Source: Clostridia bacterium (GTDB taxonomy: Bacteria > Bacillota > Clostridia > RGIG6154). From it: a stretch of DNA of 64,000 bases. This document shows, in pieces, positions 1 to 22,218 of the stretch (its first letter is position 1; each line of letters opens with the position of its first letter). Position numbers and translations under genes: made by a program. The stretch lies in assembly GCA_045605445.1 (NCBI GenBank), contig JAZUPZ010000007.1, forward strand, positions 2,924-66,923, in the 5' to 3' direction. Below the pieces are notes generated by a model that saw only the letters and a program-made list of their open reading frames with translations, was not told the DNA's origin and did no database searches.

Positions 1-614
1 TCGTTTAAAGGTGCATGAATTGTAATGTAATCAGCTTTTGCGAAAATGTCGTTTAAGTTGTTAACGTGAACAATTGAACGGGAAAGTCCCCAAGCGGCGT
101 CAACTGAAATATAAGGGTCGTAGCCGAGAACTTCCATACCAAGGCTCTTTGCAGCGTTTGCTACCATAACGCCGATAGCACCAAGACCGATAACGCCAAG
201 GGTTTTGCCTGCAATTTCAGGGCCTGTATAAGCGCTTTTGCCTTTTTCAACAAGCTTTGGAGCCGCATCGCCTTCGTCTTTTAAGGTTTCAGCCCATTTG
301 ATACCGCCGGTAATGTCTCTTGAAGCAAGGAAAAGAGCGCAGGTTGCAAGCTCTTTAACTGCATTTGCATTGGCACCGGGAGTATTGAAAACAACAATTC
401 CCTTTTCTGCAAATTTGTCAAGAGGAATATTGTTTGTGCCCGCGCCTGCTCTTGCAACTGCCTTAAGATTTGCGGGAACCTCCATATCGTGCATCGATGC
501 ACTTCTTACCAGAACACCGTCTGCTTCGTTAATATCTTCTGTAACAGCAAAATTGTCGCCAAGCTTTTCAAGACCGATATCGGCAATTTTGTTTAATGTT
601 GCAATTTTAAACAT
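1..614 (-). CDS. serA: D-3-phosphoglycerate dehydrogenase (2-hydroxyacid dehydrogenase family), partial. The N-terminus is in the window and the C-terminus runs off the window start.
   Basis: The minus-strand translation starts MFKIATLNKIADIGLEKLG and continues to GKTLGVIGLGAIGVMVANAAKSLGMEVLGYDPYISVDAAWG, a Rossmann GxGxxG NAD-binding motif. RBS AAGGAGA lies upstream of the ATG at 612-614. It is co-oriented and adjacent to serC. The listed + ORF at 238..630 is its shadow. Confidence 0.75.
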   Translation of the reverse strand, partial: MFKIATLNKIADIGLEKLGDNFAVTEDINEADGVLVRSASMHDMEVPANLKAVARAGAGTNNIPLDKFAEKGIVVFNTPGANANAVKELATCALFLASRDITGGIKWAETLKDEGDAAPKLVEKGKSAYTGPEIAGKTLGVIGLGAIGVMVANAAKSLGMEVLGYDPYISVDAAWGLSRSIVHVNNLNDIFAKADYITIHAPLN

Positions 615-630
615 TTATAAATCTCCTTAA

Positions 631-1710
631 TTATTTGTTTTCAGCTTCAAATTTTTTCATAAATTCAACAAGAGCCTTAACGCCGTCGATTGGCATAGCG
701 TTGTAAATGCTTGCTCTCATACCGCCGACAGATCTGTGACCCTTAAGGTTTTTAAAGCCTGCGGCATCTGCTTCCTTGCAGAATTTCTTGTCAAGCTCTT
801 CATCGCCTGTAACAAAGGTTACGTTCATAAGTGAACGGAATTCTTTGTCTGCACCGGGTTTGAAAAGCTCTGAAGAATCGAGATAATCGTAAAGGATTGC
901 AGCCTTTTCTTCGTTGATTTTCTTCATTGCTTCAAGTCCGCCAAGACCTAAAATCCATTTGTAAACCAGTCCTGCAACGTAAATTGCATAGCAGGGAGGA
1001 GTGTTGTACATAGAATCGTTATCAGCCATAACCTGATAGTTAAGCATTGTTGGTGTTTCCGGACGTGCATTTCCGAGAAGGTCTTCTCTTATAATTACGA
1101 TTGTAACACCAGCAGGAGCCATATTTTTCTGAGCGCCTGCATAAATAACGCCGAATTTTGTAACGTCAACAGGCTCTGAAATAATGCAGGATGACATATC
1201 TGCAACAAGAACCTTGTCGCCAACGTTTGGAACCTCAGGATATTTTGTTCCGAAAATGGTGTTGTTGTAGCAAACATGAACATAGTCAGCATCTTCACGA
1301 ACCATATCGGGAGTGATTGTAGGAATGTAAGCAAAGGTTCTGTCCTTTGAGCTTGCAATACATTTTGCATCGCCGTATTTTGCAGCTTCTTCGTAAGCTT
1401 TCTTTGAGAACTGACCTGAAACAACATAGTCAGCCTTGCCGTTTTTCATAAGGTTAAGAGGAACTGCCGCAAACTGGGTTGAAGCACCGCCCTGCATAAA
1501 GAGAACCTTGTAATTGTCCGGAATGTTCATAAGCTCACGGAGGTCTTTCTCAGCTTCCTTTATAATTGCATCGTAAACAGGAGAACGGTGACTCATTTCC
1601 ATTACAGACATTCCGCTTCCGTTATAATCTGTCATTTCCTTTGCACACTGTTCGAGTACCGGCATAGGTAACATAGAAGGACCTGCCGAAAAATTGTAAA
1701 CTCTACTCAT
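631..1710 (-). CDS. serC: Phosphoserine aminotransferase
   Basis: 359 aa PLP aminotransferase class V with typical SerC length and motifs (FSAGPSMLP, GGASTQFAAVPLNL). Forms a serC-serA operon. Confidence 0.9.
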   Translation of the reverse strand: MSRVYNFSAGPSMLPMPVLEQCAKEMTDYNGSGMSVMEMSHRSPVYDAIIKEAEKDLRELMNIPDNYKVLFMQGGASTQFAAVPLNLMKNGKADYVVSGQFSKKAYEEAAKYGDAKCIASSKDRTFAYIPTITPDMVREDADYVHVCYNNTIFGTKYPEVPNVGDKVLVADMSSCIISEPVDVTKFGVIYAGAQKNMAPAGVTIVIIREDLLGNARPETPTMLNYQVMADNDSMYNTPPCYAIYVAGLVYKWILGLGGLEAMKKINEEKAAILYDYLDSSELFKPGADKEFRSLMNVTFVTGDEELDKKFCKEADAAGFKNLKGHRSVGGMRASIYNAMPIDGVKALVEFMKKFEAENK

Positions 1711-1750
1711 TATATATACTTCCTTTCAAAATATGATTTACTGTTTAATT

Positions 1751-1794
1751 TCAACCAGCGGTTGATTTTTTAAAACCCATCAACAAGCGGTTGA
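1751..1794 (-). promoter_or_regulatory. Two near-identical palindromic operator-like sites upstream of the serC start: TCAACCAGCGGTTGA and TCAACAAGCGGTTGA, 29 bp centre to centre.
   Basis: Read directly from the sequence. 6 bp and 5 bp inverted arms around AGC or AAGCG spacers, each followed by a T-run. Confidence 0.3.
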
Positions 1795-1920
1795 TTTTTA
1801 CATTATATACCTAAAGTTTAAAAATGTCAATAACAAAAGTTGAAATAATTTAAAAATGTTTTAAATCTATTTACACAATTGAAAATTTGTGGTAAAATAT
1901 ATTCCGTATAACTGTATATA

Positions 1921-2545
1921 AATACAATGGCGCAGTATTCTAGTCAGAGTTGCTCATTTCCAGGACGGGCCTAAAAATCCGTTGAAGGGCATATCGATGA
2001 AGTTCCTGGTGCCGGCTTTCGATGCCCAATCGAGGGTTGGTGCTGGGAGTTAAGAATTAAGGGCGTACTGCAATGGCATGCAGAATACGTACCCTTTTTT
2101 CGTGGAGACCTGTGATTGTGGCGTATTTTCAGGATTGCTGTAAAGCAGACTAAAAAAAGCTACGACGCAGGGTTAAACCTGCTTGGCGGTAATTAAAAAG
2201 CTGTGGGCAGAGTAGCCTGCCTTGAGTGGCTATGGCGAATCAGGGATCAGACCCCGGGCGGTTAGGCCGATCGCCCCCGGTTATTGCTCTGTGAAACCAT
2301 ATCTGCAAAAGAGGCTAAGAATGAGTGAGTCTGCCAAGGAAATCTTCTAGACTGTTCTGACCAGGCGTATAAGGGATTGCAGTGCGGACTAAGTGGCAAT
2401 CAGGTAGCAAAGACCAGTAATGCTTTGAGGAGCGTTGTAAGCGGAAACCCCCGGGATTGGCGACGAGCCGGGAACGCTTCGGGAAAACCGACCGGACCTA
2501 AGCCGTAAAATTTACCTTGTACGCTGCCATTGTTTTATATATATG
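1921..2545 (+). ncRNA. ole: Putative OLE (ornate large extremophilic) RNA
   Basis: A ~620 nt GC-rich region with no ORF and many local stem-loops, immediately upstream of a small 4-TM protein and dxs-tlyA-nadK-argR-recN. This is the hallmark OLE/oapA gene neighbourhood known from Bacillus halodurans and Clostridia. A candidate promoter TTTACA-16-TAAAAT lies at about 1873-1905. Confidence 0.55.
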
Positions 2546-2563
2546 AATTAAAGGAGAAATTAC

Positions 2564-3130
2564 TTGGAACAAAAGAAAAGAAAAGTAAAATTCAAAACGA
2601 GTAAGAAAAAAATAAGCCTTAAGTATGTGTTTGGAATAACCTTTCTTACCTTTATAATAGCCCTTATTCTCCAGACGGTGTCAAAAATTCTTATGGAAAG
2701 CATTGCAATTTTCTATGCTTTCATTCTTCTTATCGTTGTAATAATGATAGGTATAGTGTTTGACATAATCGGTATGGCGGTTACCTCTGCCGACGATGCG
2801 GCGTTTTTCTCAATGGCGGCTGACAGGATAAGAGGCGCGAAGGAGGCCATTTCCCTTATAAAAAATGCGGAAAAGGTTTCAAATGTTGCAAACGACGTAA
2901 TTGGCGACGTTTGCGGAATCATAAGCGGAAGCATCGGCGCGGCGATAATTGCCTCCATTTCAGCGGGCAAAAGCGTAACCGAGGCGCTCTGGCTCTCCCT
3001 TCTTATAACGGGAAGCGTTTCAGCGCTTACCGTAGGGGGAAAGGCGGCAGGAAAATTTATAGCTATTTCATATAACAGCTATATAGTTTATGCGGCAGGA
3101 AAAATAATTGCTCTTTTTAAAAGAGGATAA
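2564..3130 (+). CDS. oapA: OLE-associated protein A-like small multi-pass membrane protein
   Basis: 188 aa, about 20 kDa, with four predicted TM helices. TTG start with RBS AAGGAGA. Sits between the putative OLE RNA and dxs, as oapA does. Confidence 0.5.
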   Translation: MEQKKRKVKFKTSKKKISLKYVFGITFLTFIIALILQTVSKILMESIAIFYAFILLIVVIMIGIVFDIIGMAVTSADDAAFFSMAADRIRGAKEAISLIKNAEKVSNVANDVIGDVCGIISGSIGAAIIASISAGKSVTEALWLSLLITGSVSALTVGGKAAGKFIAISYNSYIVYAAGKIIALFKRG

Positions 3131-3150
3131 TATAAAAAAGAGGAAATACT

Positions 3151-4968
3151 GTGAAAATACTTGATTCGGTTAATTATCCTAACGACCTGAAAAAACTGAA
3201 TAATTCGCAGCTTGAACAGCTTTCGGGAGAGATAAGGGAGCTTCTTGTTGAAACCGTTTCAAAAAACGGAGGACATCTTGCCTCAAACCTTGGTATTGTT
3301 GAACTCACCGTTTCTCTTCTTAAGGCTTTCAATCTTCCAAAGGATAAGATTGTTTACGACGTAGGTCATCAGAGCTATGTACATAAAATTCTTACGGGAA
3401 GAAAGGAAAGGTTTTCAACCCTAAGAACCTTTGGCGGACTTTCGGGCTTCCCGAAGACTTCCGAAAGCGAATACGACACCTTTGAAACAGGGCACAGCGG
3501 AACGGCAATTTCCGTTGCCTACGGAATTGCAGAGGCAAACAGGCTTGATAAAAATAATGATTTTGCCATTGCGGTTGTAGGCGATGCTTCTCTTTCAAAC
3601 GGGCTTTCAATGGAGGGAATGAACAACGCGGGACGTTCCTCCACAAGGCTCATTGTTATTTTGAACGACAATGAAATGTCAATTTCTCCAAACGTTGGTA
3701 ATTTAAGAACCTATCTTACAAAATTAAGAACTCAGCCGGGGTATAACAGCTTTAAGGCAGACGTGGAAAAGTTTCTTGAAAAAATTCCTCTTATCGGAGC
3801 ACCGGTAGGGAAATTTCTTAAAAAAACCAAATACGGAATTAAGCATATGCTTATTCCCGGAACCCTCTTTGAGGGCTTCGGCTTTAATTATATAGGACCT
3901 ATCGACGGTCACAACATCGGGCTTATGACAACAGTTTTCGAAAGAGCGAAAACAATGGAACAGCCTGTTTTTATTCACGTTGTTACAAAAAAGGGAAAGG
4001 GATATTCCTTTGCCGAGAAAACTCCCGGACTTTACCACGGAACGGGAAGCTTTAACAGCAAAAAGCCTATTGAATATAAGGTTAATGAAAACAGCTATTC
4101 GGAAATCGCAGGAAGAGAGCTTACCCGTCTTGGCAAGGAAAACGATAAAATTGTGGCGGTTTGCGCTGCAATGGAGGACGGAACGGGGCTTTACCGTTTC
4201 CACAGGGAAATTCCTGAAAGATTTTTCGATGTGGGCATCAGCGAGGAGCACGCGGTAACCTTCTGCGGAGGGCTTGCCTCGCAGGGGAAAATTCCCGTTT
4301 TTGCGGTTTATTCAACCTTTCTTCAAAGGTGCTATGATAATATAATCCACGATGTGGCTCTTTCAAAAAGGCACGTTGTTTTCCTTGTGGACAGAGGCGG
4401 AATTTCCGGTCCTGACGGCGAAACCCATCAGGGCATTTTCGACGTTCCTATGCTAATGAGCATTCCGGGGGTTAAAATTTACACTCCTTCTACAGACAAA
4501 GAGCTTGAAAAGGCAATAGAAACAGCGGTGCTTTATGACAACTGTCCCGTTTTTGTAAGATATCCCAAGGGAAATGCAAAAAAAGACAGCCGGGAGGTTG
4601 ACATAAGCAGGGCAAGAATTTTAAGGGAAGGCAAAAACGTAACCGTTGTAACAATGTCGAAAATGACAGAGGTAGTGTCAGAAACAGAATTTGACGGCGA
4701 CCATATTCATCTTAACTGCATAAAGCCGATTGATACAGAAACAATTTACAGCTCGGCTGTTAAAACCGGCAGGGTAATCACCTTTGAGGACAATATGGTT
4801 TCCTGCGGTATGGGACAGGCACTTTCAGACCTTTTGAGAGCAAAAGGCTTTGAAGGGAAAATTGAAAATGTGGGGCTTGACGGCTTTGTGGAGCACGGAA
4901 GCGTTGAAGAGCTTCTTGAAAAATACGGACTTAATGAAGAGGGTATTAAAAAGAGGATTTATAAATGA
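3151..4968 (+). CDS. dxs: 1-deoxy-D-xylulose-5-phosphate synthase
   Basis: 605 aa TPP-dependent transketolase-like protein with the DVGHQSY...GHSGTAIS motifs. GTG start. Confidence 0.9.
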   Translation: MKILDSVNYPNDLKKLNNSQLEQLSGEIRELLVETVSKNGGHLASNLGIVELTVSLLKAFNLPKDKIVYDVGHQSYVHKILTGRKERFSTLRTFGGLSGFPKTSESEYDTFETGHSGTAISVAYGIAEANRLDKNNDFAIAVVGDASLSNGLSMEGMNNAGRSSTRLIVILNDNEMSISPNVGNLRTYLTKLRTQPGYNSFKADVEKFLEKIPLIGAPVGKFLKKTKYGIKHMLIPGTLFEGFGFNYIGPIDGHNIGLMTTVFERAKTMEQPVFIHVVTKKGKGYSFAEKTPGLYHGTGSFNSKKPIEYKVNENSYSEIAGRELTRLGKENDKIVAVCAAMEDGTGLYRFHREIPERFFDVGISEEHAVTFCGGLASQGKIPVFAVYSTFLQRCYDNIIHDVALSKRHVVFLVDRGGISGPDGETHQGIFDVPMLMSIPGVKIYTPSTDKELEKAIETAVLYDNCPVFVRYPKGNAKKDSREVDISRARILREGKNVTVVTMSKMTEVVSETEFDGDHIHLNCIKPIDTETIYSSAVKTGRVITFEDNMVSCGMGQALSDLLRAKGFEGKIENVGLDGFVEHGSVEELLEKYGLNEEGIKKRIYK

Positions 4969-5753
4969 AGCAAAGACTTGATATATACCTGTTTGAAAAC
5001 GGACTTGCCGAAAGCAGGGAAAAAGCAAAAAGCATAATAATGAGCGGTAATGTTTACGTTAACGACCAGAAAACCGACAAGGCAGGCTTTGCCGTAAAGG
5101 AAGGGGACATGGTTGAGGTTCGCGGTAAAACAAACCCTTATGTAAGCCGCGGCGGTCTTAAGCTTGAAAAGGCTATAAACAACTTCGGCGTAAGCCTTGA
5201 GGGGAAGATTGCAATGGACATAGGCGCCTCTACCGGCGGATTTACCGACTGTATGCTGCAAAACGGCGCAGTAAAGGTTTTCTCGGTAGATGTTGGCTAC
5301 GGTCAGCTTGCCTGGAAGCTTCGCGAGGACAAAAGAGTTGTTAATATGGAAAGAACCAACATAAGAAACGTTACCCCTGAAGATATCGGGGACAAACTTG
5401 ATTTTGCTTCAATCGACGTTTCCTTTATTTCCCTTAAGCTGGTTCTTCCCGTTGCAAAGGAGCTTTTATCGGAAAACGGCGAAATCCTCTGCCTTATAAA
5501 GCCCCAGTTTGAGGCGGGCAGGGAAAACGTAGGCAAAAAAGGAGTTGTAAGGGACATTAAGGTTCATTACGAGGTTGTTAAAACAATTGCAGACTTTGCC
5601 CTTTCGATCGGGCTTTATCCTAAGGCGTTTGACTTTTCGCCCATAAGAGGCCCCGAAGGTAATATTGAATATTTAATGTATCTTGACAAAAAGGAAAATA
5701 ACATAGAAATAGATTATAAAAAAGTGGTAGACGAAAGTCACGCTTTATTGTAG
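4965..5753 (+). CDS. tlyA: TlyA-family rRNA 2'-O-methyltransferase (hemolysin A-like)
   Basis: 262 aa with an S4 RNA-binding N-terminus and an FtsJ-like methyltransferase domain (GASTGGFTD). Confidence 0.8.
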   Translation: MKQRLDIYLFENGLAESREKAKSIIMSGNVYVNDQKTDKAGFAVKEGDMVEVRGKTNPYVSRGGLKLEKAINNFGVSLEGKIAMDIGASTGGFTDCMLQNGAVKVFSVDVGYGQLAWKLREDKRVVNMERTNIRNVTPEDIGDKLDFASIDVSFISLKLVLPVAKELLSENGEILCLIKPQFEAGRENVGKKGVVRDIKVHYEVVKTIADFALSIGLYPKAFDFSPIRGPEGNIEYLMYLDKKENNIEIDYKKVVDESHALL

Positions 5754-5761
5754 GTGGTTTT

Positions 5762-6604
5762 ATGAAAATTGCTCTTGTTTCAAACCCAAGCCGTGATATC
5801 GGGCTTGCAGAGAGCAGAAAAACAGCGGAAAAGTTAATAGAAATGAACGTTCAGGTTGTTACCGAAAGCGAGGGCATAAAGGGAACAACGGTTGTAAAGG
5901 ATACTGATGCTCTGTTCAGAGAAGCCGACCTTGCTGTTGTTATCGGCGGAGACGGAACTCTTCTTTCAGCCGCTCAGTACGGAGCAAAATACAATGTTCC
6001 CCTTTTAGGGCTCAATGCAGGCAGGCTGGGCTTTCTTGTTGAACTTGAAAAGGGCGACGGTGCCCTTCTTGAAAAGGTTGTAAGGGGAGAGTATTCAACC
6101 GAAGAGAGAATGATGCTTTCCGCAAGGGTTGAAAGAAACGGCAAAGAGGTTTACCGCTGTGATGCTCTTAACGATATTGTTGTTTCCAAGGGCGTTCTTT
6201 CAAAAATGATAAATCTTCAGCTTAAAATCGACTCGGTTGGAGTTAACGATTATTATGCCGACGGGCTTATTCTTTCAACGCCTACGGGCTCAACGGCTTA
6301 TTCCCTTTCTGCGGGCGGTCCCGTTGTTGCTCCTGCCATAAATGCAATAGTGGTAACTCCCGTTTGTGCTCATACGATGACCTCAAGACCAATGGTAATT
6401 TCTGACAGTCAGACTGCCGAAATAACCGTTAAGTTTTATCATAACGAGGACGTTCGCCTAAGCCGTGACGGAGCAGACCATATTGCCCTTTGCGACGGCG
6501 ACGTAATAACCGTTACAAAGTCAGACAAAAAGGTTAAGCTTATAAGATGCAACAGCTTAAGCTTTTTCGACGTGCTTTACAGAAAGCTTTCAGAAAGGAA
6601 GTAA
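5762..6604 (+). CDS. nadK: NAD kinase
   Basis: 280 aa with the GGDGT motif (VVIGGDGTLL). Conserved position between tlyA and argR. Confidence 0.85.
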   Translation: MKIALVSNPSRDIGLAESRKTAEKLIEMNVQVVTESEGIKGTTVVKDTDALFREADLAVVIGGDGTLLSAAQYGAKYNVPLLGLNAGRLGFLVELEKGDGALLEKVVRGEYSTEERMMLSARVERNGKEVYRCDALNDIVVSKGVLSKMINLQLKIDSVGVNDYYADGLILSTPTGSTAYSLSAGGPVVAPAINAIVVTPVCAHTMTSRPMVISDSQTAEITVKFYHNEDVRLSRDGADHIALCDGDVITVTKSDKKVKLIRCNSLSFFDVLYRKLSERK

Positions 6605-6608
6605 AACA

Positions 6609-7064
6609 ATGTCCAAAAAATTAAGGCACAATGCCATAATTAAGCTTATAAATGAGCAGGTTATCGAAACTCAGGGACAGCTTACCCAGAAGCTGATTGA
6701 AATGGGCTATGATGTAACTCAGGCAACCGTTTCAAGAGACATAAAGGAATTAAGACTTGTTAAAATCGCAGACTATGCGGACAGATACAGATATGCAACT
6801 CCCGGCAGAAAAGACGAGGCAGACGTAAGAAGCCGTTACATTGGCGTTTTAAAACACGGGGCGGTTTCCATAAGAGTTGCAATGAATCTTGTGGTAGTAA
6901 AAACAATTGCAGGGTCTGCTCAGGGCTGTGCAATGGCAATAGAAACCTTAGGCTTTGAGGATATAATCGGGGTTATAGCGGGTGACGATACCCTGTTTAT
7001 CGCTCTCGGCTCCGAGGACGAGGCAAGAAGCCTTGTAGAAAAACTGGAAGAGGTAATAGGCTGA
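6609..7064 (+). CDS. argR: Arginine repressor
   Basis: 151 aa with an N-terminal winged HTH and a C-terminal arginine-binding oligomerisation domain (GDDTLF). Confidence 0.85.
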   Translation: MSKKLRHNAIIKLINEQVIETQGQLTQKLIEMGYDVTQATVSRDIKELRLVKIADYADRYRYATPGRKDEADVRSRYIGVLKHGAVSIRVAMNLVVVKTIAGSAQGCAMAIETLGFEDIIGVIAGDDTLFIALGSEDEARSLVEKLEEVIG

Positions 7065-8737
7065 TGCTTAGCAATCTGCATATAGAAAACATCGCAATTA
7101 TCGATAATGTGAATATAGATTTTACCGATGGCTTTCAGGTGCTCACAGGACAAACGGGCGCCGGAAAATCTATTATAATCGACTCTATAAATCTGCTTAC
7201 CGGGGAAAGAAGCTCCCGTGAGCTGGTTCGTACCGGAGCGGAAAAAGGTTTTGTTGAAGGCGCGGTATATACAACTGACAAAAAGGTTTATGAAATGCTC
7301 AACGAGGCGGGAATTTCATACTTTGAGGGAGACCCGCTTATTCTTTCAAGAGAAATAAGCAAAGACGGAAGAAGCGTTGTAAGAATCAATTCAAGAACTG
7401 CAACAACAGGGCTTTTAAAAAGCATTTGCGCAAGAATTATAAATATCCACGGTCAGCACGATAACCAGGCAATTCTTGACGTTTCCTGCCATGGGGAGAT
7501 TCTCGACAGCTACGCAAAAAACGAAGAGCTTCTTAAGGGTTACCGCAGGGAATATAACGAATATAAAAGAATAAAGAACGAGCTGGAATCCGAGGATGAA
7601 GACATTTCCTTAAAGGAACAGAAAAAGGAGTTTCTTGAATTCCAGATTGATGAAATTGAAAAGGCAAAGCTTAAGATTGGAGAAGATGAAGAGCTTTCGG
7701 ACATAAGAAAAAGATATTTAAACAGCGAAAAAATTCTTCTTAATCTTAATGCTTCCTACAGCGCTCTTATGGGCGACGAGGAAAGCCTTGGCGCAAATCA
7801 GCAGATTAAAGCCGCAATCAAGGGAATGCAGGATTTATCCGACCTGGTTGAGGACGCCGACGGGCTTTCAAAAAAGCTTGAGGAAATTTACTATCTTCTT
7901 GACGACGTTTCCGAAACCCTGAGGGATTTAAAGGATGGCGACAATTCTGAAGAGGTTGACATAAACTATATAGAAGAAAGAATCGACCTTATTAACCGTC
8001 TTAAAAAGAAATACGGTTCAACGGTTGAGGAAATTCTTGAAACAAAGGAAAAGCTTGAAGAGGAGCTTCTTGAAATTGAGAACTCCGATGAATATAAAAA
8101 GAAGCTTGAAAAAGAGCTGAAAATTCAGCTTAAAAAAACCTCAGCTCTTGCCGATGAGCTTTCAGAGAAAAGAAAAAAGGCGGGAGAGGAGCTGGCAAAG
8201 CAGGTTCTTGTTCAGCTTAAAGACCTGGAAATGCCAAACGTAACCTTTAAGGTTGAAATTGAAGATGCGCCCCTTTCTTCAAAAGGAAAGGATAAAATTG
8301 AATTTATGATTTCCGCAAATGCGGGCGAGGCGCTTAAGCCTTTAAGCAAGGTAGCCTCCGGCGGTGAGCTTTCAAGAATAATTCTTGCACTTAAAGTTAT
8401 ATTAAGTAAGAACGATTTTGTTTCAACTATGATTTTTGACGAGGTTGACACCGGCGTAAGCGGGAGTGCGGCTCAGAAAATTGCTGAAAAAATAAAGGCT
8501 GTTTCAAAGGAAAAACAGGTTTTTGTTATAACTCATCTGCCCCAGATGGCAGCTTTTGGCGACTCCCACTATCTTATAGAAAAGGAAGCAACGGGCGGCA
8601 AAACCTCATCAAAGGTAACTCTTCTTAATGAAGAGGGCAGAGTGGCCGAAATTGCAAGGCTTTTAAGCGGAAGCGTAATAACAGAAAATGCGCTTAACAA
8701 TGCAAGGGAGCTTATTTCTCTGGGAAAGGATTTTTAA
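7064..8737 (+). CDS. recN: DNA repair protein RecN
   Basis: 557 aa SMC-like protein with a Walker A motif (GQTGAGKS) and coiled-coil middle region. Confidence 0.9.
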   Translation: MLSNLHIENIAIIDNVNIDFTDGFQVLTGQTGAGKSIIIDSINLLTGERSSRELVRTGAEKGFVEGAVYTTDKKVYEMLNEAGISYFEGDPLILSREISKDGRSVVRINSRTATTGLLKSICARIINIHGQHDNQAILDVSCHGEILDSYAKNEELLKGYRREYNEYKRIKNELESEDEDISLKEQKKEFLEFQIDEIEKAKLKIGEDEELSDIRKRYLNSEKILLNLNASYSALMGDEESLGANQQIKAAIKGMQDLSDLVEDADGLSKKLEEIYYLLDDVSETLRDLKDGDNSEEVDINYIEERIDLINRLKKKYGSTVEEILETKEKLEEELLEIENSDEYKKKLEKELKIQLKKTSALADELSEKRKKAGEELAKQVLVQLKDLEMPNVTFKVEIEDAPLSSKGKDKIEFMISANAGEALKPLSKVASGGELSRIILALKVILSKNDFVSTMIFDEVDTGVSGSAAQKIAEKIKAVSKEKQVFVITHLPQMAAFGDSHYLIEKEATGGKTSSKVTLLNEEGRVAEIARLLSGSVITENALNNARELISLGKDF

Positions 8738-9148
8738 ATGGAAAAGGCAGAAGGAATCCTTGTGGAAAACAAGGGGGAACTTTCAAAGGTTAAAATAGTA
8801 AGAGGTTCAATGTGCGGAGAAAGCTGCGGAAGCTGCAATCTTTGCGGAAAAAGAGAAACCTTCGTTTTTGCCCGTAACAAAGCAGGCGCCGTAAAGGGCG
8901 ACAGAGTTGTTCTTGAAATGGACTCTGCTTCGGGACTTAAAGCGGCATTTCTTGTTTACGGCATGCCTCTTGTTATCCTTATTCTCGGAATTGTGCTTAT
9001 TGCTGTTTTTAATTCTGACCAGATAAAAGGGCTTTTGCTTGTGCTTTTTGCAATAGTTCTCTGGTTCTTTGTGGTTAAGCTTATTGATAAAAATATGAAA
9101 CCGGCGGCGGAAATAACTGAGGTGGTATGTAAAAATGATACCGAATAA
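8738..9148 (+). CDS. RseC/MucC-family protein (SoxR-reducing system component-like)
   Basis: 136 aa with an N-terminal CxxCxxC cysteine cluster and two C-terminal TM helices. Confidence 0.5.
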   Translation: MEKAEGILVENKGELSKVKIVRGSMCGESCGSCNLCGKRETFVFARNKAGAVKGDRVVLEMDSASGLKAAFLVYGMPLVILILGIVLIAVFNSDQIKGLLLVLFAIVLWFFVVKLIDKNMKPAAEITEVVCKNDTE

Positions 9149-10283
9149 TTCAAAAAACAACAAGGTTCAGAACAGAAATATAATACTTAAAATAATGGCT
9201 CAGAATGCGCCCGTTTCAAGAATTGAGCTTGCAAGGGTAACAGGGCTTTCAAAAATGTCGTTAACAAACATAATTGCCGAGTTCAACGAAAACAACTGGG
9301 TAAAGGAAATAGGCATAGACGTAACCGGCACAGGCAAAAGAAAACCCGTTCTTCTTGATTTTGTAGATAACTGCCTTTGCGCAATAGGAATAAATTTAAC
9401 AAGAGATTATGTTGAAGGATGTCTTGCAGACATCAAGGGAAGTGTGGTATACTCTAAAAGAATTGCCATTGAAGAAAACGATGATAACGAGGCAATAGAA
9501 AATCATATGACCGAGCTGGTAAACTCCCTTATGAATATGGGTAAGCATAATGTAATCGGCATAGGAGTAAGCACCTTCGGTCCCGTTGACCTTAAAAACG
9601 GAATTATTTACAAGCCTACAAATTTTCACAATATAGAAAATTTCAACATTGTGAAGGCTATTAAAAACAATTATTCTCTCCCTGTTTTCATTCAGAAAAA
9701 CAATAACTGCGCAATACTTGCCGAAAAATATTACGGCTTGTGTAAGGAGGATTCTAACTTTTCATATATTGGTGTTTCAGGAGGCGTTGGCGCATCCTCT
9801 GTTGCAAATGACACCCTTATAACCGGCGAGAGCGGCTATTGCTGCGAAATAGGTCATATAACCATTGACTACAAGGGCGAGCCCTGCTCTTGCGGAAACA
9901 GAGGCTGTCTGGAAAAATATGCAAATATAAATAAATGTATTGAATATGTAAAAGAAAAACGCCCCGACGTTAAAAATCTCGACTTCAACAAGGTTGTGAA
10001 TATGACAAGGGAAGGGGATAAGGCTTCAGGTGAAGCAGTTGACCAATTATGCGGATATATCGCAATAGGAATTATAAATCTTATAAAAATTTATGATCCC
10101 ACAAAAATTATAATAGGAAGCGACATCGCCGTTGGCGGTGATATAATACTTGACAAAATCAAAAAGAGAGTTGCTCAAACAGTTGATTTTGACAAGATAT
10201 ACATTTCCAGATTCTACGACAAGAGCCCGCTTATCGGAGCGGCAACTCTGGTGTTTGAAAATATGTTTTTCGGGAATGTATAA
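9135..10283 (+). CDS. ROK-family transcriptional regulator
   Basis: 382 aa with an N-terminal HTH and a C-terminal sugar-kinase-like domain carrying the zinc motif CSCGNRGCLE. Confidence 0.7.
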   Translation: MIPNNSKNNKVQNRNIILKIMAQNAPVSRIELARVTGLSKMSLTNIIAEFNENNWVKEIGIDVTGTGKRKPVLLDFVDNCLCAIGINLTRDYVEGCLADIKGSVVYSKRIAIEENDDNEAIENHMTELVNSLMNMGKHNVIGIGVSTFGPVDLKNGIIYKPTNFHNIENFNIVKAIKNNYSLPVFIQKNNNCAILAEKYYGLCKEDSNFSYIGVSGGVGASSVANDTLITGESGYCCEIGHITIDYKGEPCSCGNRGCLEKYANINKCIEYVKEKRPDVKNLDFNKVVNMTREGDKASGEAVDQLCGYIAIGIINLIKIYDPTKIIIGSDIAVGGDIILDKIKKRVAQTVDFDKIYISRFYDKSPLIGAATLVFENMFFGNV

Positions 10284-15860: not shown

Positions 15861-15889
15861 TTGACACAAATTTACAAATAATGTATAAT
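15861..15889 (+). promoter_or_regulatory. Sigma-A-like promoter TTGACA-17-TATAAT
   Basis: Consensus -35/-10 with a 17 bp spacer directly upstream of the 15920 start. The ORF-track ATG at 15881 lies inside the -10 box. Confidence 0.55.
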
Positions 15890-15919
15890 AAATTAAGTAA
15901 ATTTTTCGGAGGAACAAGG

Positions 15920-17239
15920 ATGAAAGGAAAAGTTTTTATAGGCTGGAGCGGTACAAATAAACTTGCATACAAGGTTAAAGCAAGCCTTGAAAAGGAAAAC
16001 TACGAGGGTGTGGTAGGTGGCCAGTCGGGGCAGGATGGCGGGCTTTATGTAGGTGCTGTTGTGCTGAATGAAATCGACGGTTGCAACCAGGCATTGTTTG
16101 TTGTGCAGAAAAAAGAAAATGAAAGAATCAGCAACAATCTTATGTTCGAGCTCGGTTATGCTCTTGCCAAATTCAATGCAAATAAAATTCATGTTGTTTA
16201 CGTTGATATTGATTCCGAGGACAAGGAAATTCCTTCAGACTTAAAAGGAATATGGGCAAGCCATTGCAGTACTGAGGGCGACGAAAAAATAGAAGATGAA
16301 ATTGTTGGCAAGTTCCTTGAAAACCAGAAAAATATAATTCCTGAAGAGAAAATGAGCGTAATCGGTTCTTATTATCATATGAAGGAGCAAATTAAAAAAT
16401 ATGCCTATGCGCCTCATTGCTCAGAGTATGAATTTGCTCAGTATATTCTCTTTTTCTCCCAGGCGGCTTATATGTACAGCAATGAAAAGGATGCTTTAAG
16501 AGCGCTTAAAGAGCTTATGAACCGTCTTCCCAATCCGGCACCGTCTCTTGACAGTGCTGTAAGATTCGCCGTTTGCTATCTTGAACTTTTCCTTTTTGTT
16601 AAAAAGGAGGAGGACCGTCTTTTTATTGACCGTCACGACTTCAGAACCCTTAAACGTAAGCTTAAGAGTATTGAAGAGAAAGTTGAGCCTATGGAAAAGG
16701 ATGATTTTACCAAGTGGTTCCTTGTTTTTATAAACGATACCATAAATTATTCTCATATTCTCTATTCGTACAATAGCGAGCATACCGAAGAAGAAAAAGA
16801 AGAAATTTTAAACAACAGTATTCCTTATGCAGAAAAATGTCTTAAATATTGTGAAGAACTTAAGGAAAACAAGGCAAATGCCCTTTGCTTAGAGCTTTAT
16901 ACGGCGTATATGTACAGAAACTTATCTACGGCATATAAGCAGCTTCCGGAGGGAACTGAAAAATCTCACACATATCTTAACAAATCCTTTGAAGCAAGGA
17001 AAAAGCTTGTGGAATATTATGAAATGCACGATATAAGTACAAAGCTTTTTGACAATTTCGAGCTTGAATACTATCTTGCTCTGAGCGAATGTCTTGAGTT
17101 TGTAACCGATGAGGACGATTTTCTTGATTACAAATACGATTGTGAGGAATACATAAAAAGGGTTAAGGAGCTTAACCGTGAGAAATCTTATTTCATAAAT
17201 AAAATTGAAAGACTTGTTAAACTTTGCCCGGAGGAATAA
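15920..17239 (+). CDS. Protein with an N-terminal nucleoside 2-deoxyribosyltransferase-like (TIR-like) domain and a C-terminal alpha-helical domain
   Basis: N-terminus KVFIGWSG...LMFELGYALA matches the NDT-family FE(L/I)GYA catalytic-Glu motif. RBS GGAGGAACAAGG. The ~330 aa C-terminus is helical with no recognisable domain. Confidence 0.45.
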   Translation: MKGKVFIGWSGTNKLAYKVKASLEKENYEGVVGGQSGQDGGLYVGAVVLNEIDGCNQALFVVQKKENERISNNLMFELGYALAKFNANKIHVVYVDIDSEDKEIPSDLKGIWASHCSTEGDEKIEDEIVGKFLENQKNIIPEEKMSVIGSYYHMKEQIKKYAYAPHCSEYEFAQYILFFSQAAYMYSNEKDALRALKELMNRLPNPAPSLDSAVRFAVCYLELFLFVKKEEDRLFIDRHDFRTLKRKLKSIEEKVEPMEKDDFTKWFLVFINDTINYSHILYSYNSEHTEEEKEEILNNSIPYAEKCLKYCEELKENKANALCLELYTAYMYRNLSTAYKQLPEGTEKSHTYLNKSFEARKKLVEYYEMHDISTKLFDNFELEYYLALSECLEFVTDEDDFLDYKYDCEEYIKRVKELNREKSYFINKIERLVKLCPEE

Positions 17240-17242: not shown

Positions 17243-18034
17243 ATGGAAAAACTGATAATTTTTGCAGATTACGGACTTGACGATGCCGCCGCAACGGTAA
17301 GTATTTTAAAAAAAGCAGAGAAATTTGAAAAAATATATTTCGTTCCCATCGGCGGAAACGTTCCCGTTACAATGTCATATAAAAACTGTCTTCTGCTTCT
17401 TTCTCATATCGGATGTGATGCTCTTGAGAAAATTGTTATAGTTGATACAACAAAAATAAAACAGCCCTCGGAGTATCTGGCAGAAATTCACGGAAAGGAC
17501 GGAATGGGAGATTTCTTTGAAGAAATCGAATGTAACCTTAACGTACGATATACAGACTTTGAGGAGTTTAAAAACGAGCTTGACGGAAGTGAAACCGTTT
17601 TAAGTCTCGGGCCTATGACTTTGGTTAAGGAGATAATGGAAAAACATCCCCATAAGCTTATAATTATGGGAGGCTGTGTAAACGAGGAACCTAATTTTAA
17701 AGGCTATGAATTTAATCACTGTCTTGACAAAGAAGCTTTTTCTTATTGTGTGAAATTTCCTCACAAGGCAATAACTCTTGACACCTGCCGTACGGAAAAA
17801 CTCGATGTAAGAAGAGTTGAAATAAAGGGCGAGGATGTTCATTCAAGAATATTAAAAGCCGACCAGAGGCTCAGCATAACAAGGGGAGAGGCCGGTTGCT
17901 ATGTGTGGGACGATGTTGCGGCTTGTTGCCTTCTTTATCCTGAAAGGTTTGAGGTTAAAGAGGAAATTGACCCATACGGGAATAAAATTTCCAACACCGT
18001 ATATATTTCAGACAAGCTTTATTGGGAAGAATAA
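17243..18034 (+). CDS. Inosine-uridine-preferring nucleoside hydrolase family protein
   Basis: The N-terminal motif IIFADYGLDDAAAT fits the IUNH DxDxGxDDA signature. 4 bp from the upstream gene, so operonic. Confidence 0.5.
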   Translation: MEKLIIFADYGLDDAAATVSILKKAEKFEKIYFVPIGGNVPVTMSYKNCLLLLSHIGCDALEKIVIVDTTKIKQPSEYLAEIHGKDGMGDFFEEIECNLNVRYTDFEEFKNELDGSETVLSLGPMTLVKEIMEKHPHKLIIMGGCVNEEPNFKGYEFNHCLDKEAFSYCVKFPHKAITLDTCRTEKLDVRRVEIKGEDVHSRILKADQRLSITRGEAGCYVWDDVAACCLLYPERFEVKEEIDPYGNKISNTVYISDKLYWEE

Positions 18035-19940: not shown

Positions 19941-20003
19941 GGGGGATGTTAAAAAAGTCCGGAACGTCAAAAGGCTGTGTTTTCCCTATGAAAGACACAG
20001 TAA
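19941..20003 (+). repeat. C-type 60 bp repeat immediately after a stop codon. The second copy is inverted at 41756-41816.
   Basis: GGGGATGTTAAAAAAGTCCGGAACGTCAAAAGGCTGTGTTTTCCCTATGAAAGACAC matches the reverse complement at 41756-41816 at about 90% identity. Confidence 0.6.
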
Positions 20004-20029
20004 ATATAAAAAAATTTAACCAAATGTAG

Positions 20030-20068
20030 AAAAACCTCAATTTCTTGAGGTTTTTCCTTGTTTTTATG
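20030..20068 (+). terminator. Rho-independent terminator
   Basis: AACCTCAA...TTGAGGTT followed by a T-run. Confidence 0.65.
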
Positions 20069-20076
20069 CCTTTTGA

Positions 20077-20357
20077 CTACGAACAAACTTCACCTAACTC
20101 CGCGTAGCGTCGCAACCTTCGCTGTTAATTGAGCTTTTGCAAAGCACAAAGTTTACGCTCGGTTGCTCCTTTTCCCCATAAAGTCAATTGACTTTTTGGG
20201 GAAAAGGAAAAACAATGCAAAGAAGCGAAGTTTTGCATTTGTGCAAAACGTAGCAAGTCTGCTTTGTTTTGACGCGCGTTCGGGTTCCCACAAGCATAGC
20301 TTGTGGTTCAGTTTGTTCGTTCCAAACATTTTTTCCTATCCCCTTACGGGGTGAAGC
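20077..20357 (+). repeat. A-type modular repeat copy carrying a ~150 bp internal insertion rich in nested palindromes
   Basis: Same 5' module as 15603 (CTACGAACAAACTTCACCTAACTCCGCGTA) and same 3' module (GGTTCAGTTTGT...TTTTTTCCTATCCCCTTACGGGGTGAAG). The insert includes CCTTTTCCCC-ATAAAGTCAATTGACTTTTT-GGGGAAAAGG. Confidence 0.55.
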
Positions 20358-20476
20358 TGTTTAAAATTAAGTTTTTAAACAGCTTCTTTGTGTTTCTGTG
20401 CAAAAAATGGTACTTTGGTAAAATAGGGGATTGAAATTTATATCCCATGGTGTTAAACTTATACTACAACAGAAAA

Positions 20477-20676
20477 CACGGTTTTGCAGCAGTGCACATC
20501 CGTTTTTTAGAAAACACGGAGAGGGCAGCGAGTCGCTGCCTTGGGTTAGTTACCGGGGAACTTCGTTTCGCATCCGCGAAACGCCTCCCGGCATCGCTAC
20601 GACGAATAATAAATCATAATATGATTAACAAAATTCGCCTCCGCTCGCCGGGATAATATGTGCCGCAAAGCCGTGA
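20477..20676 (+). ncRNA. Putative retron non-coding RNA (msr-msd)
   Basis: a1 (CACGGTTTTGCAGCAGTGCAC, about 20477-20497) and a2 (GTGCCGCAAAGCCGTG, about 20660-20675) form a 13/15 bp inverted repeat bracketing ~160 nt. Inside is a long interrupted hairpin (CCGGGGAACTTCGTTTCGC-ATCC-GCGAAACGCCTCCCGG) plus the GGCAGCGA/TCGCTGCC and ATCATAATATGAT hairpins, directly upstream of the RT. Confidence 0.5.
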
Positions 20677-21773
20677 ACTGTAAAAAAGCAAAGGAGGGGG
20701 AACTGTTGAAAATTATAGGCGGAGCTGTAATTTTTGAGGAATGTGATTCTCATTTTGTTGAAAAGTTTACATTCCCAAAGGCAATGGAAATAGTTCATAA
20801 TTTTATCAGTACAAATTCCCATCCTTTTATTTTTGATACCTATCAGCTTTCTGATTTTATAAACGTAAGCAGAAAAAGGCTTTTTGTGCTTTCCCGCTTC
20901 AGGGAGGAGCACTATAAGGTTTTAAAAGTAATAAAGAAAAACGGGAAATACAGAACCCTTAAAATTCCCGATGAGGAGCTTAAAGATGTTCAGAAAAAAA
21001 TCTTAAGGCAGATTTTGCTTTATTATGATGTTTCTGAATATGCAACGGCGTATGAGAGGGGCTCAACTCTTTATAAAAATGCCGTGGTTCACAAGGGCAA
21101 AAAATATCTTCTGAAAATGGATATTTCCGATTTTTTTGACAGTATAACCTCCGATATGGTTCACGACAAGGTGTTCAACACAAAATATTTCCCAAAGCAT
21201 ATCGGCTCCCTGCTTACTCAGCTTTGCTGTAACGAGGGTTGTCTTCCTCAGGGAGCGCCTTCCTCACCGAAGCTTTCAAACATAGTTATGGCAGACTTTG
21301 ACGGAGCCATAGGAAGATGGTGTTCAAAAAAAGGGGTTTCCTATACAAGATATTGCGACGATTTAACCTTTTCTTCTGATGAGCCTCTTTACAACGTTTA
21401 TGTAAGAGTAAAATCAATGCTTGAGGAAATGGGCTTTGAGGTTAACGAAAATAAAACCGGATTTTTTACCAATGCCTGCCGCCAGAGCGTAACGGGACTT
21501 ACCGTTAACGAAAAGGTGAGGGTTTCAAGGGAGTATAAAAGAAAGCTCCGTCAGGAAATTTACTACACTTTAAAATACGGTCCTTCTGATGTTATCACAA
21601 AAGAGGATAAGAAGGAATTTGTGTTTTTCGGAGAACCGGAGATACAGACTTATATGGACTCACTTATAGGAAGAACGGCTTATGTTCTTCAGATAGAACC
21701 GGCGAATAAAAGCTTTGACGACTTTCTTAAAAAGCTTATAAAGCTGAAAAAAGAACTGAACAGGGAACAATAA
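20658..21773 (+). CDS. Retron-type reverse transcriptase
   Basis: QGAPSSPKLSNIVMADFD and YTRYCDDLTFS (the YxDD box) plus NENKTGFF...VTGLTVNEKVRVSRE align to retron Ec86-type RT motifs. The true start is probably the TTG near 20706, behind the RBS AAGGAGGGGG. Confidence 0.75.
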   Translation: MCRKAVNCKKAKEGELLKIIGGAVIFEECDSHFVEKFTFPKAMEIVHNFISTNSHPFIFDTYQLSDFINVSRKRLFVLSRFREEHYKVLKVIKKNGKYRTLKIPDEELKDVQKKILRQILLYYDVSEYATAYERGSTLYKNAVVHKGKKYLLKMDISDFFDSITSDMVHDKVFNTKYFPKHIGSLLTQLCCNEGCLPQGAPSSPKLSNIVMADFDGAIGRWCSKKGVSYTRYCDDLTFSSDEPLYNVYVRVKSMLEEMGFEVNENKTGFFTNACRQSVTGLTVNEKVRVSREYKRKLRQEIYYTLKYGPSDVITKEDKKEFVFFGEPEIQTYMDSLIGRTAYVLQIEPANKSFDDFLKKLIKLKKELNREQ

Positions 21774-21868
21774 AGCAACAGGCAACGGTAAATTTTATAA
21801 TAAACGGGAATATTGCGTAAAATTCACCCGAAATGTAATAAAATCTACAGAATTTTGACGTTAAAAGG

Positions 21869-21897
21869 TTGACAAATACGCTGTAAAGTGATATTAT
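21869..21897 (+). promoter_or_regulatory. Promoter TTGACA-17-TATTAT
   Basis: Read directly from the sequence, upstream of the small TM ORF. Confidence 0.45.
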
Positions 21898-21928
21898 AAA
21901 GTATATTATTTTCGGAGGTACGGAAAAG

Positions 21929-22168
21929 ATGACAGTTGTAAAATCAAATTTCAACACTTCATCTGAAGATGCAAAAACTTTTGCACCTTGTTCTTGTGCT
22001 GCTGAAACAATGAATAATAGCGTTTTTTCAGGCATTGCTCTTGCAATGTCTGTTTTATTATGCCTTTGCCTTGTTAATGTCCTTAGCATTTATGGCATAA
22101 TTACAGGCATTATTATACTAAACATAATTACAGGAAACAAATATGAAAAGGCAAAGAGTTTAAGTTAA
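21929..22168 (+). CDS. Small 2-TM membrane protein, candidate retron effector
   Basis: 79 aa with two hydrophobic helices (VFSGIALAMSVLLCLCLVNVL and IYGIITGIIILNIITG). 155 bp downstream of the RT. Confidence 0.35.
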   Translation: MTVVKSNFNTSSEDAKTFAPCSCAAETMNNSVFSGIALAMSVLLCLCLVNVLSIYGIITGIIILNIITGNKYEKAKSLS

Positions 22169-22179
22169 TTTTGCAGAGT

Positions 22180-22218
22180 TATGATTTTGACGGTTTTGCC
22201 TTTTCAGGGTAAAACCGT
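22180..22218 (+). terminator. Putative terminator
   Basis: ACGGTTTT...AAAACCGT stem followed by TTTTT. Confidence 0.4.

Follow-up and report, generated by a model that had tools for sequence, protein, structure and literature searches.

Few bacterial noncoding RNAs are as large or as well conserved as OLE (ornate, large, extremophilic), a membrane-associated RNA with a still mysterious biochemical function. Recent work suggests that, as a dimer and jointly with the protein OapA, it spans the membrane. The OapA-binding palindromes were reportedly mapped by Block et al. in 2011 (we address them only through the general conservation of the RNA). To our knowledge, no biochemical activity of the RNA itself has been established in the field.

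OLE RNAs have been described as abundant and processed; they localise to the membrane and have protein partners of their own (PMC12265935). The hosts expected for the family are anaerobic or extremophilic Bacillota. In the alkaliphilic Bacillus Halalkalibacterium halodurans, ole lies inside a polycistronic transcript with upstream genes including ispA; oapA (BH2780) follows directly downstream, and dxs, tlyA, nadK, argR and recN belong to the same cluster. The OLE RNA of Clostridium acetobutylicum (577 nt) has been resolved by cryo-EM as a homodimer (PMC12286853). Two variants of the family occur in gut or uncultured Bacillota: variant 1 (TANB77), with P7-P9 shortened and the OapB site often missing, and variant 2 (RF39), without P7 and P8 (Fernando and Breaker 2024, PMC11332333).

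The locus studied here lies in a 64-kb stretch of DNA (the window) from a metagenome-assembled genome (MAG) of an uncultured Clostridia-type bacterium, whose genes, pyruvate:ferredoxin oxidoreductase among them, would fit an anaerobe. Its best-matching relatives, among the matches listed, are uncultured Clostridia, Oscillospiraceae, Agathobaculum and Butyricicoccus MAGs. We consider it very probable that positions 1911-2546 are a functional full-length OLE RNA gene and 2564-3130 its partner gene oapA; nothing in our analysis contradicts this identification, and the two should be annotated as ole and oapA. The locus shares with that of H. halodurans a full-length RNA with P4a, the flanks of the P5 k-turn, P6-P9, a P13 GNRA loop and a P14.1 GCGA loop, an oapA gene directly downstream followed by the same cluster, and an OapA protein with a DxxxD motif and four helices. 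With C. acetobutylicum it shares the Clostridia class, the domain organisation of the RNA and all the residues conserved family-wide, although the window RNA is longer (~610-636 nt).

The OLE RNA and its conservation

The Rfam model of OLE (RF01071, gathering score 50 bits) matches 636 nt of the plus strand, 1911-2546, with 467.2 bits (E 5.8e-134) over model positions 1-616 of 616. A preliminary description of this DNA had proposed an OLE RNA in this interval on the basis of its lack of open reading frames (ORFs), its GC richness, its apparent structure and its gene neighbourhood. The interval stood, but not the 5' boundary given there (1921): the Rfam match starts at 1911, and pairing sets in at nucleotide 1924. 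The compositional observations were borne out: no ORF of at least 50 aa occurs on either strand from the serC start (1710) to 2564, and the G+C content of 1911-2546 is 48.9%, compared with 40.8% for the whole window and 22.5% for the spacer 1711-1910.

An OLE RNA is expected to be ~600 nt long and to have ~25% of its nucleotides >97% conserved. The conserved core proved to be entirely present: 62 other OLE RNAs have 163 positions with a conservation of at least 97%, and the window agrees with the consensus base at every one of them, in an alignment whose nhmmer profile had the window sequence as its seed. The RNAs of two relatives (77-88% OapA identity) score similarly with the Rfam model (474-487 bits).

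An RNA of this size and structure might in principle belong to another class (RNase P RNA, tmRNA or a group II intron), although nothing beyond these two general properties speaks for it. RF01071 is the only Rfam family that reaches its gathering threshold in the whole 64-kb window, and a permissive scan (E<=1) of 1500-3300 detected none of these classes and no other competitor, the sole additional hit being a chance 19.7-bit snoRNA match within oapA. The probability that we assign to such an identity is vanishingly small, and we retain OLE.

Fold, covariation and candidate protein-binding elements

The region was also correctly described as highly structured, with a minimum free energy of -231.5 kcal/mol (z = -5.4 versus shuffled sequences) and a corresponding fold that recovers the main stems, including 1924-1931/2526-2533 and 1953-1959/2319-2325. 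The following elements were identified, from P4a onwards by the Rfam alignment and, in the 3' domain, also by the pair table.

1924-1931 with 2526-2533, plus strand: closing long-range helix (P1-like); changes on both sides in 7 of 8 pairs, 87.7% of cells paired; present in the minimum-free-energy fold
1932-1936 with 2351-2355, plus strand: long-range helix; 4 of 5 pairs with at least two pair types
1953-1959 with 2319-2325, plus strand: long-range helix; 7 of 7 pairs with at least two pair types; present in the minimum-free-energy fold
1964-1983, plus strand: P4a hairpin (GACGGGCCUAAAAAUCCGUU)
1984-2055, plus strand: J4a/5 (…AUCGAUGAAG), long P5/P5.1 hairpin (2003-2049) and J5/6 (UUAAGA)
2054-2101, plus strand: P6, 48 nt (panel median 47)
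2109-2171, plus strand: P7, 63 nt (panel median 61)
2179-2210, plus strand: P8, 32 nt (panel median 36.5)
2219-2315, plus strand: P9 arch, 97 nt (panel median 97)
2364-2525, plus strand: 3' domain (P12-P15 region)
2407-2428, plus strand: P13 hairpin with a GUAA (GNRA) loop at 2417-2420
2459-2462, plus strand: GCGA loop of P14.1

This structure is strongly marked by covariation. In the consensus structure of 56 diverse OLE sequences, 86.6% of the cells are paired, versus 39-45% with slid partners, and 125 of the 165 pairs of this alignment exhibit compensatory changes; none of 500 shuffles reached any of the observed measures. The Python covariation scan found 92-99% of cells paired in the helices 1932-1936/2351-2355 and 1953-1959/2319-2325, which join the 5' region to the segment that follows P9 and which, with stem names taken from PMC12265935, most likely correspond to the P2/P3 region of current OLE models. 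The closing helix 1924-1931/2526-2533 is absent from the Rfam model.

Several of these elements correspond to reported sites of protein contact. P4a is one of two OLE regions reported to contact OapA (PMC12265935, PMC12054373), and its loop, CCUAAAAAU, is invariant across the 56 sequences. In a published model, the flanks of P5 refold into a k-turn bound by OapC or bS21 (PMC9723947); the k-turn positions of the window, AUC-GAU-GAAG (1993-2002) and UUAAGA (2050-2055), are identical to the consensus, and by their sequence these flanks could form such a k-turn. The OapB site needs a GNRA loop and a bulge (PMC7936274). Both are present in P13, making it a candidate OapB site, with a bulge two pairs under the loop that apparently comprises 2 nt (A2413, C2414) whereas that of H. 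halodurans has 1 nt. The lengths of P7, P8 and P9, all near the panel medians, and the P13 GNRA loop therefore identify the window RNA as the full-length type and not as variant 1 or 2, although these belong to the same family and occur in the same kind of host. Compared with the Rfam consensus, the P7 loop appears to carry 19 extra nucleotides; we discounted this as a novelty, because P7 lengths in the panel span 19 to 109 nt and the window (63 nt) lies at the median (61).

The locus could also be a decaying, non-functional OLE remnant. Of the Rfam model, 139 of the 157 pairs are standard in the window and 18 are not, and defective ole genes have been described in rare genomes without oapA (PMC11332333). 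However, the non-standard pairs are confined to stems that vary across the panel (inner part of P6, P7, tips of P8 and P9), whereas the highly conserved positions are all intact. Moreover, oapA is intact and encodes all 18 family-invariant residues, and the two relatives mentioned above keep the same RNA. Decay is thus highly improbable, and a functional OLE RNA remains our reading.

OapA and its likeness to CNNM-type transporters

The gene that follows the RNA has the expected features of oapA.

2552-2556, plus strand: ribosome-binding site AGGAG, 7 nt before the start codon
2564-3130, plus strand: oapA, 188 aa, TTG start, 17 nt beyond the OLE match

The ribosome-binding site and the TTG start are kept in four relatives (loci L082, L083, L084 and L002). 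The product had been described as a four-transmembrane protein of ~20 kDa, in agreement with its mass of 19.97 kDa and with an AlphaFold2 model (mean pLDDT 85) containing four long helices (residues 19-46, 49-75, 102-132 and 138-169), three of which pass the Kyte-Doolittle threshold of 1.6. This fits the ~21 kDa and four predicted transmembrane helices expected of OapA. The N-terminus is strongly basic (9 K/R among the first 17 residues), a composition compatible with RNA binding.

Pfam and NCBIfam gave no hit for this protein, either at default thresholds or at E<=10. Since no curated OapA model exists, its membership was established by other routes. It matches a published OapA (listed in Supplementary Table 4 of PMC12286853, machine-read from the PDF and therefore possibly with small errors) with a BLASTP E value of 1e-24 (32% identity over 166 aa) and a hhalign probability of 100% (E 5.8e-40). 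A sequence search retrieved 5720 homologues of ~190 aa, and the best match in the genome scan, among the matches listed, was 55% identical. The motifs GIVFD (63-67), NDVIGD (110-115) and TVGGKAAGK (156-164) correspond to GIxFD, NDVIGD and TVGGKxxGK, which are invariant in the aligned homologues. NDVIGD holds the DxxxD signature (D111-V-I-G-D115), found in 71 of 71 aligned homologues and described as specific to OapA and absent from CNNM domains (PMC11332333). The 188-aa protein is thus a member of the OapA family.

The best Foldseek matches of the model in the PDB were MtCorB (7M1T, 7M1U) and CorC (7CFF, 7CFG), with probability 1.00 and TM scores of 0.54-0.57 over ~140 residues for CorB but weak E values (0.025-0.2), and some homologues are annotated as CorB by JGI. 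This would be in line with a small CNNM/CorB-type Mg2+ transporter adjoining OLE only incidentally. Nevertheless, 7M1U is also the top structural hit of the H. halodurans OapA (PMC11332333), and the window protein has neither the CBS pair nor the CorC/HlyC domain of MpfA, CorB and CorC (7M1T, 7M1U, 7CFF), with which it shares a similar membrane-domain fold and which have been proposed as its functional analogue. It also differs from them in having four long helices instead of three, the OapA-specific DxxxD and no proline at all, so that the conserved CNNM proline is missing. In the CNNM family of Pfam (PF01595), its relatives reach 24-25 bits, below the cut-off of 28.4, and the window protein obtains no score. 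Lacking any Pfam or NCBIfam hit and ending at residue 188, it was not filed as MpfA/CorB. PDB searches with the single sequence and with a 71-sequence profile returned no meaningful hit; no OapA structure is deposited there. Added to this are the direct homology to the named OapA and the constant pairing with OLE: in each of 80 genomic loci with an OapA relative, OLE lies upstream on the same strand, and Rfam confirmed this in all 11 loci to which it was applied, 8 from this set and 3 from close relatives. There is therefore very little probability that the protein is an unrelated transporter rather than OapA.

The window OapA deviates from the rest of its family in one detail. The PFH motif, which lies in the short interfacial helix after TM2 of OapA, has its histidine in 67 of 71 sequences; this residue is missing in the window protein and its three closest relatives, as is the preceding proline, and the window reads AFF where H. 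halodurans has PFH. Some detail of OapA function may consequently differ in this clade.

Gene order, predicted promoters and a proposed model of the particle

The genes downstream of oapA, confirmed by Pfam/NCBIfam, are those that had been recognised from the sequence alone as dxs, tlyA, nadK, argR and recN, followed by two more.

3151-4968, plus strand: dxs
4965-5753, plus strand: tlyA
5762-6604, plus strand: nadK
6609-7064, plus strand: argR
7064-8737, plus strand: recN
8738-9148, plus strand: rseC-like gene
9135-10283, plus strand: ROK-family gene

The order OLE-oapA-dxs-tlyA-nadK-argR-recN prevails among 80 related loci, in agreement with its earlier designation as the synteny signature of the system. 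The genes of 3151-10283 are tightly packed, with gaps of 0-20 nt or overlaps, and are probably co-transcribed; no convincing terminator was found between OLE and dxs. In a search of the window for MpfA, OapB and OapC, which covered annotated ORFs of 120 aa or more as far as position 58,779, no protein combining CNNM, CBS and CorC domains (MpfA) was detected.

Upstream of OLE, the arrangement is different from that of H. halodurans and of most relatives.

1-614, minus strand: truncated serA-type gene, its translation resembling 2-hydroxyacid dehydrogenases; divergent from OLE
631-1710, minus strand: serC (NCBIfam serC, 555 bits); divergent from OLE
1751-1765 and 1780-1794: two 15-nt palindromes TCAAC-N5-GTTGA, downstream of the serC promoter
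1830-1802, minus strand: predicted serC promoter, perfect TTGACA-17-TATAAT (consensus scan); a neighbour of OLE and not part of it
1870-1898, plus strand: predicted sigma-70-type promoter of OLE, with -35 TTTACA (1870-1875), a 17-nt spacer and an extended -10 TGgTAAAAT (1890-1898)

As noted in the preliminary description, ispA is absent here and serC-serA runs divergently: this pair replaces the usual neighbours xseA-ispA, and ispA is the commonest nearest upstream ORF elsewhere (22 of 60 loci). One relative (L083) has the same pair, with 2-Hacid_dh domains. The 200-nt spacer is indeed shared by the ole promoter, the serC promoter and the palindromes. In the two closest relatives (L082 and L083) both palindromes are unchanged while the spacer between them varies; a role of the palindromes in regulating serC is plausible. 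The OLE promoter matches the consensus at 10 of 12 positions plus the TG, and both TTTACA and TGnTAnAAT are kept in L082 and L083; from its position we infer a transcription start at ~1904-1907. With this predicted, conserved promoter just 5' of the RNA, OLE would head its own operon in the window, in contrast with its place within the H. halodurans transcript.

An RNA placed directly between a promoter and the oapA ribosome-binding site, which begins 6 nt past the Rfam match, and not followed by a terminator, could be read as a long 5' leader of oapA-dxs, riboswitch- or attenuator-like and acting only in cis, instead of a trans-acting ribonucleoprotein RNA. Against this, no expression platform (terminator or anti-terminator) is visible in the sequence. 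Furthermore, 51 of the 60 related loci have their nearest upstream ORF on the strand of OLE, often ispA at a distance of ~50 nt, which places OLE within an operon in most species rather than in a leader position. Together with the processing, abundance, membrane localisation and own protein partners known for the family (PMC12265935), these observations make a purely cis-acting leader very improbable, and we favour a trans-acting OLE RNA.

The published work on H. halodurans and on the C. acetobutylicum RNA (PMC12286853) allows us to propose, by analogy, how such a particle might work in this organism. Transcription would start from the conserved sigma-70-type promoter ~5-10 nt before the Rfam match, OLE being the 5'-most element of a long putative operon OLE-oapA-dxs-tlyA-nadK-argR-recN-rseC-ROK, from which it would presumably be excised as a stable ~610-nt RNA. 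This RNA would adopt a two-domain structure closed by the long-range helices and dimerise. Dimers of OapA, with their CNNM-like four-helix membrane domain and DxxxD, would hold it at the membrane by contacting it near P2 and P4a. OLE would recruit further proteins, namely OapB via the GNRA loop of P13 and either OapC or bS21 via the k-turn around P5. The OLE of the window would thus be part of a membrane-anchored stress-response ribonucleoprotein, expected to help the cell withstand alcohol, cold, an excess of Mg2+ and growth on poor carbon sources. Its means may be a modulation of divalent-cation transport via OapA that stands in for the CBS and CorC domains of the all-protein MpfA/CorB transporters.

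The window contains a clear but ordinary new example of the known OLE/OapA system. More than 2,800 OLE representatives have been catalogued (PMC11332333), so this one does not change the general picture. It provides an identity for 2564-3130, at present without Pfam or NCBIfam name, and its comparative value, although modest, lies in an OLE that appears to head its own operon from a conserved predicted promoter beside a divergent serC-serA pair, and in the clade-specific replacement of the near-invariant OapA histidine. Tentatively, the small clade formed by the window and its relatives (77-88% OapA identity) might have evolved an autonomous OLE-oapA transcription unit apart from xseA-ispA together with the loss of the PFH histidine and proline, a combined scenario that we regard as unlikely. 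If the PFH histidine handles ions or RNA, the clade would offer a naturally occurring OapA variant whose regulation or activity has changed, and would be useful for dissecting how the RNA affects the transporter-like OapA.

The OLE RNA upstream of oapA

No ORF of at least 50 aa occurs on either strand from the serC start (1710, minus strand) up to an ORF that begins at 2564. G+C content is 48.9% in 1911-2546, against 40.8% for the window mean and 22.5% for the preceding spacer (1711-1910), and 1911-2546 folded alone reaches -231.5 kcal/mol (z = -5.4 relative to dinucleotide shuffles). A search of the whole 64-kb window with Rfam 15 matched this segment (plus strand) to the OLE model RF01071 with 467.2 bits (gathering score 50; E 5.8e-134), across model positions 1-616 of 616 and without truncation, as the sole match above gathering score. 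Since a permissive scan (E<=1, 1500-3300) added to OLE just one chance snoRNA match (19.7 bits, inside the ORF), RNase P RNA, tmRNA and group II introns, the classes that might have competed for this interval, are excluded. Projected onto the window, 139 of the 157 consensus base pairs are standard pairs.

For comparison we used 80 loci from GTDB species genomes, taken from the matches listed for an alignment of homologues of the downstream protein and mostly from uncultured Clostridia, Oscillospiraceae, Agathobaculum, Butyricicoccus and Faecousia; the three closest loci were added by exact protein look-up. With the window's RNA as seed, iterative nhmmer recovered an OLE-like sequence on the strand of the protein gene and upstream of it in every one of these 80 listed loci, incomplete only at contig ends. 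Rfam confirmed OLE in 11 out of 11 loci tested: ten matched over the full length at 390-508 bits, and the eleventh, interrupted by a contig end, scored 160 bits. Conservation reaches at least 97% in 163 alignment columns across 62 full-length relatives, close to the quarter of the molecule described as highly conserved (PMC12265935), and the window carries the consensus base at all 163.

Covariation was evaluated on a 56-sequence MAFFT alignment using the structure of the Rfam model with one helix added. Paired cells amounted to 86.6%, compared with 39-45% after partners were shifted by 1-3 columns; changes on both sides were seen in 125 of 165 pairs, and none of 500 column shuffles reached any observed measure. 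The added helix (1924-1931/2526-2533), absent from the Rfam model, covaries in 7 of its 8 pairs and has its counterpart in the helix that closes the molecule in current OLE models. A scan for covarying helices among unpaired columns found two more, 1953-1959/2319-2325 (7/7 pairs covarying) and 1932-1936/2351-2355. With these long-range helices, whose exact P-numbers we infer, the molecule takes on the two-domain layout of the literature, one domain being built from the 5' and 3' ends and the other from the central part (PMC12265935).

Three OLE types have been described: full-length, variant 1 (short P7-P9, often without the OapB site) and variant 2 (without P7 or P8) (PMC11332333). In the window, P7, P8 and P9 measure 63, 32 and 97 nt (panel medians 61, 36.5 and 97); P13 is capped by a GUAA tetraloop and bulged two pairs beneath it, and P14.1 has GCGA, features of the kind required by the OLE-binding protein OapB (PMC7936274), with the small uncertainty that the P13 bulge seems to be 2 nt instead of 1. 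The P5 flanks, AUC-GAU-GAAG and UUAAGA, are identical to the consensus segments from which the OapC k-turn is built (PMC9723947). The window RNA is therefore a full-length OLE, and every sequence and predicted structural element needed for the published interactions is present. The P7 loop exceeds the Rfam consensus by 19 nt, which we do not regard as a peculiarity because P7 length normally varies between 19 and 109 nt.

In three other OLEs, from MAGs or isolates of Pelethomonas, Neopoerus and Sporobacter (L043:7204-7872, L036:7299-7965 and L080:7275-7946), a further hairpin of ~20 nt is inserted after P5 (alignment A3, columns 84-93 and 146-166). Their junction between P4a and P5 is altered, CUGUGAAA instead of the usual CGAUGAAG, at exactly the k-turn region.

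Identity of the downstream protein

The ORF at 2564-3130 encodes 188 aa (19.97 kDa), with a TTG start, AGGAG 7 nt upstream and a lysine-rich N-terminus. No model in Pfam or NCBIfam recognised it and a comparison with PDB sequences found nothing, but it has 5720 homologues of ~190 aa each, with the invariant motifs GIxFD, NDVIGD and TVGGKxxGK. It aligns with the OapA of Supplementary Table 4 of PMC12286853 (E 1e-24, 32% identity over 166 residues), and that literature OapA matches the family profile with 100% probability. OapA is set apart from CNNM domains by a DxxxD motif and lacks their conserved proline (PMC11332333); in the window protein the motif reads D111-x-x-x-D115, and proline is absent from the entire sequence.

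Its AlphaFold2 model (pLDDT 85, pTM 0.75) shows four long helices, and among PDB folds it best matches those of the archaeal CNNM transporter MtCorB (7M1T, 7M1U; TM 0.54-0.57) and the CorC membrane domain; 7M1U is also the published top match for H. halodurans OapA. Relatives score slightly below the Pfam CNNM cut-off, as published. The Mg2+ transporters MpfA and CorB, suggested by this fold, were rejected as identities since the CBS and CorC domains are absent from the window protein, which is therefore OapA.

Residues 80-82 (2801-2809) read AFF, in a PFH/xFH motif whose third position is His in 67 of 71 homologues and in the literature OapA. Of the 71 sequences, the only ones without this near-invariant His are the window's OapA and the three nearest to it (P0002, P0004 and P0006). 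The replacement of His (and Pro) is clade-specific and of minor interest.

Promoters and gene neighbourhood

Features flanking the OLE-oapA locus
1751-1765 and 1780-1794: two 15-nt palindromes TCAAC-N5-GTTGA, 29 nt spacing, after the serC promoter
1830..1802, other strand: serC promoter, perfect sigma-70 consensus TTGACA-17-TATAAT
1870-1898, pointing at OLE: sigma-70-type promoter TTTACA, 17 nt, TGgTAAAAT, in the 200-nt spacer
Upstream of OLE, opposite strand: serC and the start of a serA-type dehydrogenase
Downstream of oapA, plus strand: dxs, tlyA, nadK, argR, recN (Pfam, NCBIfam)
After recN, plus strand: RseC-like protein, then ROK-family protein

The promoter aimed at OLE is conserved in both close relatives, and no terminator was found between OLE and oapA; OLE would therefore be the first element of its transcription unit, whereas in H. 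halodurans it is internal to a longer transcript. This autonomous promoter is of minor interest. From OLE to the ROK-family gene (1911-10283), nine genes follow with gaps of at most 20 nt or overlaps, and in the stretch onward to 12564 a ClpC-like AAA+ gene comes next after 25 nt, so that transcripts from the OLE promoter may exceed 10 kb. On the serC side, the palindromes are invariant in the two relatives while the spacer drifts, making them a plausible candidate operator pair for serC-serA.

Most of the 80 listed loci have the order OLE-oapA-dxs-tlyA-nadK-argR-recN, so the downstream synteny of the window is canonical. Upstream of OLE, the gene seen most often in the panel encodes the polyprenyl synthase IspA on the same strand, ~50 nt away and with XseA before it; in 22 of 60 loci among the matches listed, the nearest upstream ORF is IspA. 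The window belongs to the minority (9/60 of these listed loci) with a divergent nearest ORF. Divergent serA-serC is shared with its two closest relatives (OapA 88% and 77% identical); a 58%-identical OapA relative has secD-secF upstream instead.

In a few genomes the ole-oapA gap, usually <100 nt, is 560-830 nt (L008, OLE 6465-7183, oapA 8001; L064, OLE 3572-4166, oapA 4858; L078, OLE 6793-7443, oapA 8001), which suggests an inserted gene or element.

Elsewhere in the window, a 371-aa retron-type reverse transcriptase (20658-21773, plus strand; PADLOC RT_Ec107-like, 376 bits, E 3e-113; RT_III-A, 306 bits) follows ~718 nt of ORF-poor sequence that could hold an msr/msd RNA; the gene and its flanks (19941-20657, 21774-22220) had no Rfam group II intron match. 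A CAP12/Pycsar-effector-type TIR protein (15881-17239, plus strand) precedes a nucleoside-hydrolase-like gene (17243-18034, plus strand), and a second, 737-aa TIR+TPR protein lies at 49011-51224 (plus strand). These two are possible defence genes, with weak PADLOC matches.

Significance for the OLE family

The preliminary description was correct in all these respects: an ORF-free, GC-rich, structured interval holding OLE, a ~20 kDa OapA, the dxs-to-recN order and a divergent serC-serA. The locus is a standard member of a family already catalogued in >2,800 genomes (PMC11332333). The best-supported account of its mechanism is borrowed from H. halodurans genetics and recent cryo-EM (PMC12265935, PMC12286853, PMC10898510). 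By analogy, the RNA would dimerise and bind OapB, and OapC or bS21, while OapA dimers would hold it at, possibly across, the membrane via its P2 and P4a regions. Cells would require it when stressed by alcohol, cold, Mg2+ or carbon source, and it may take the place of the protein regulatory domains of MpfA/CorB transporters.
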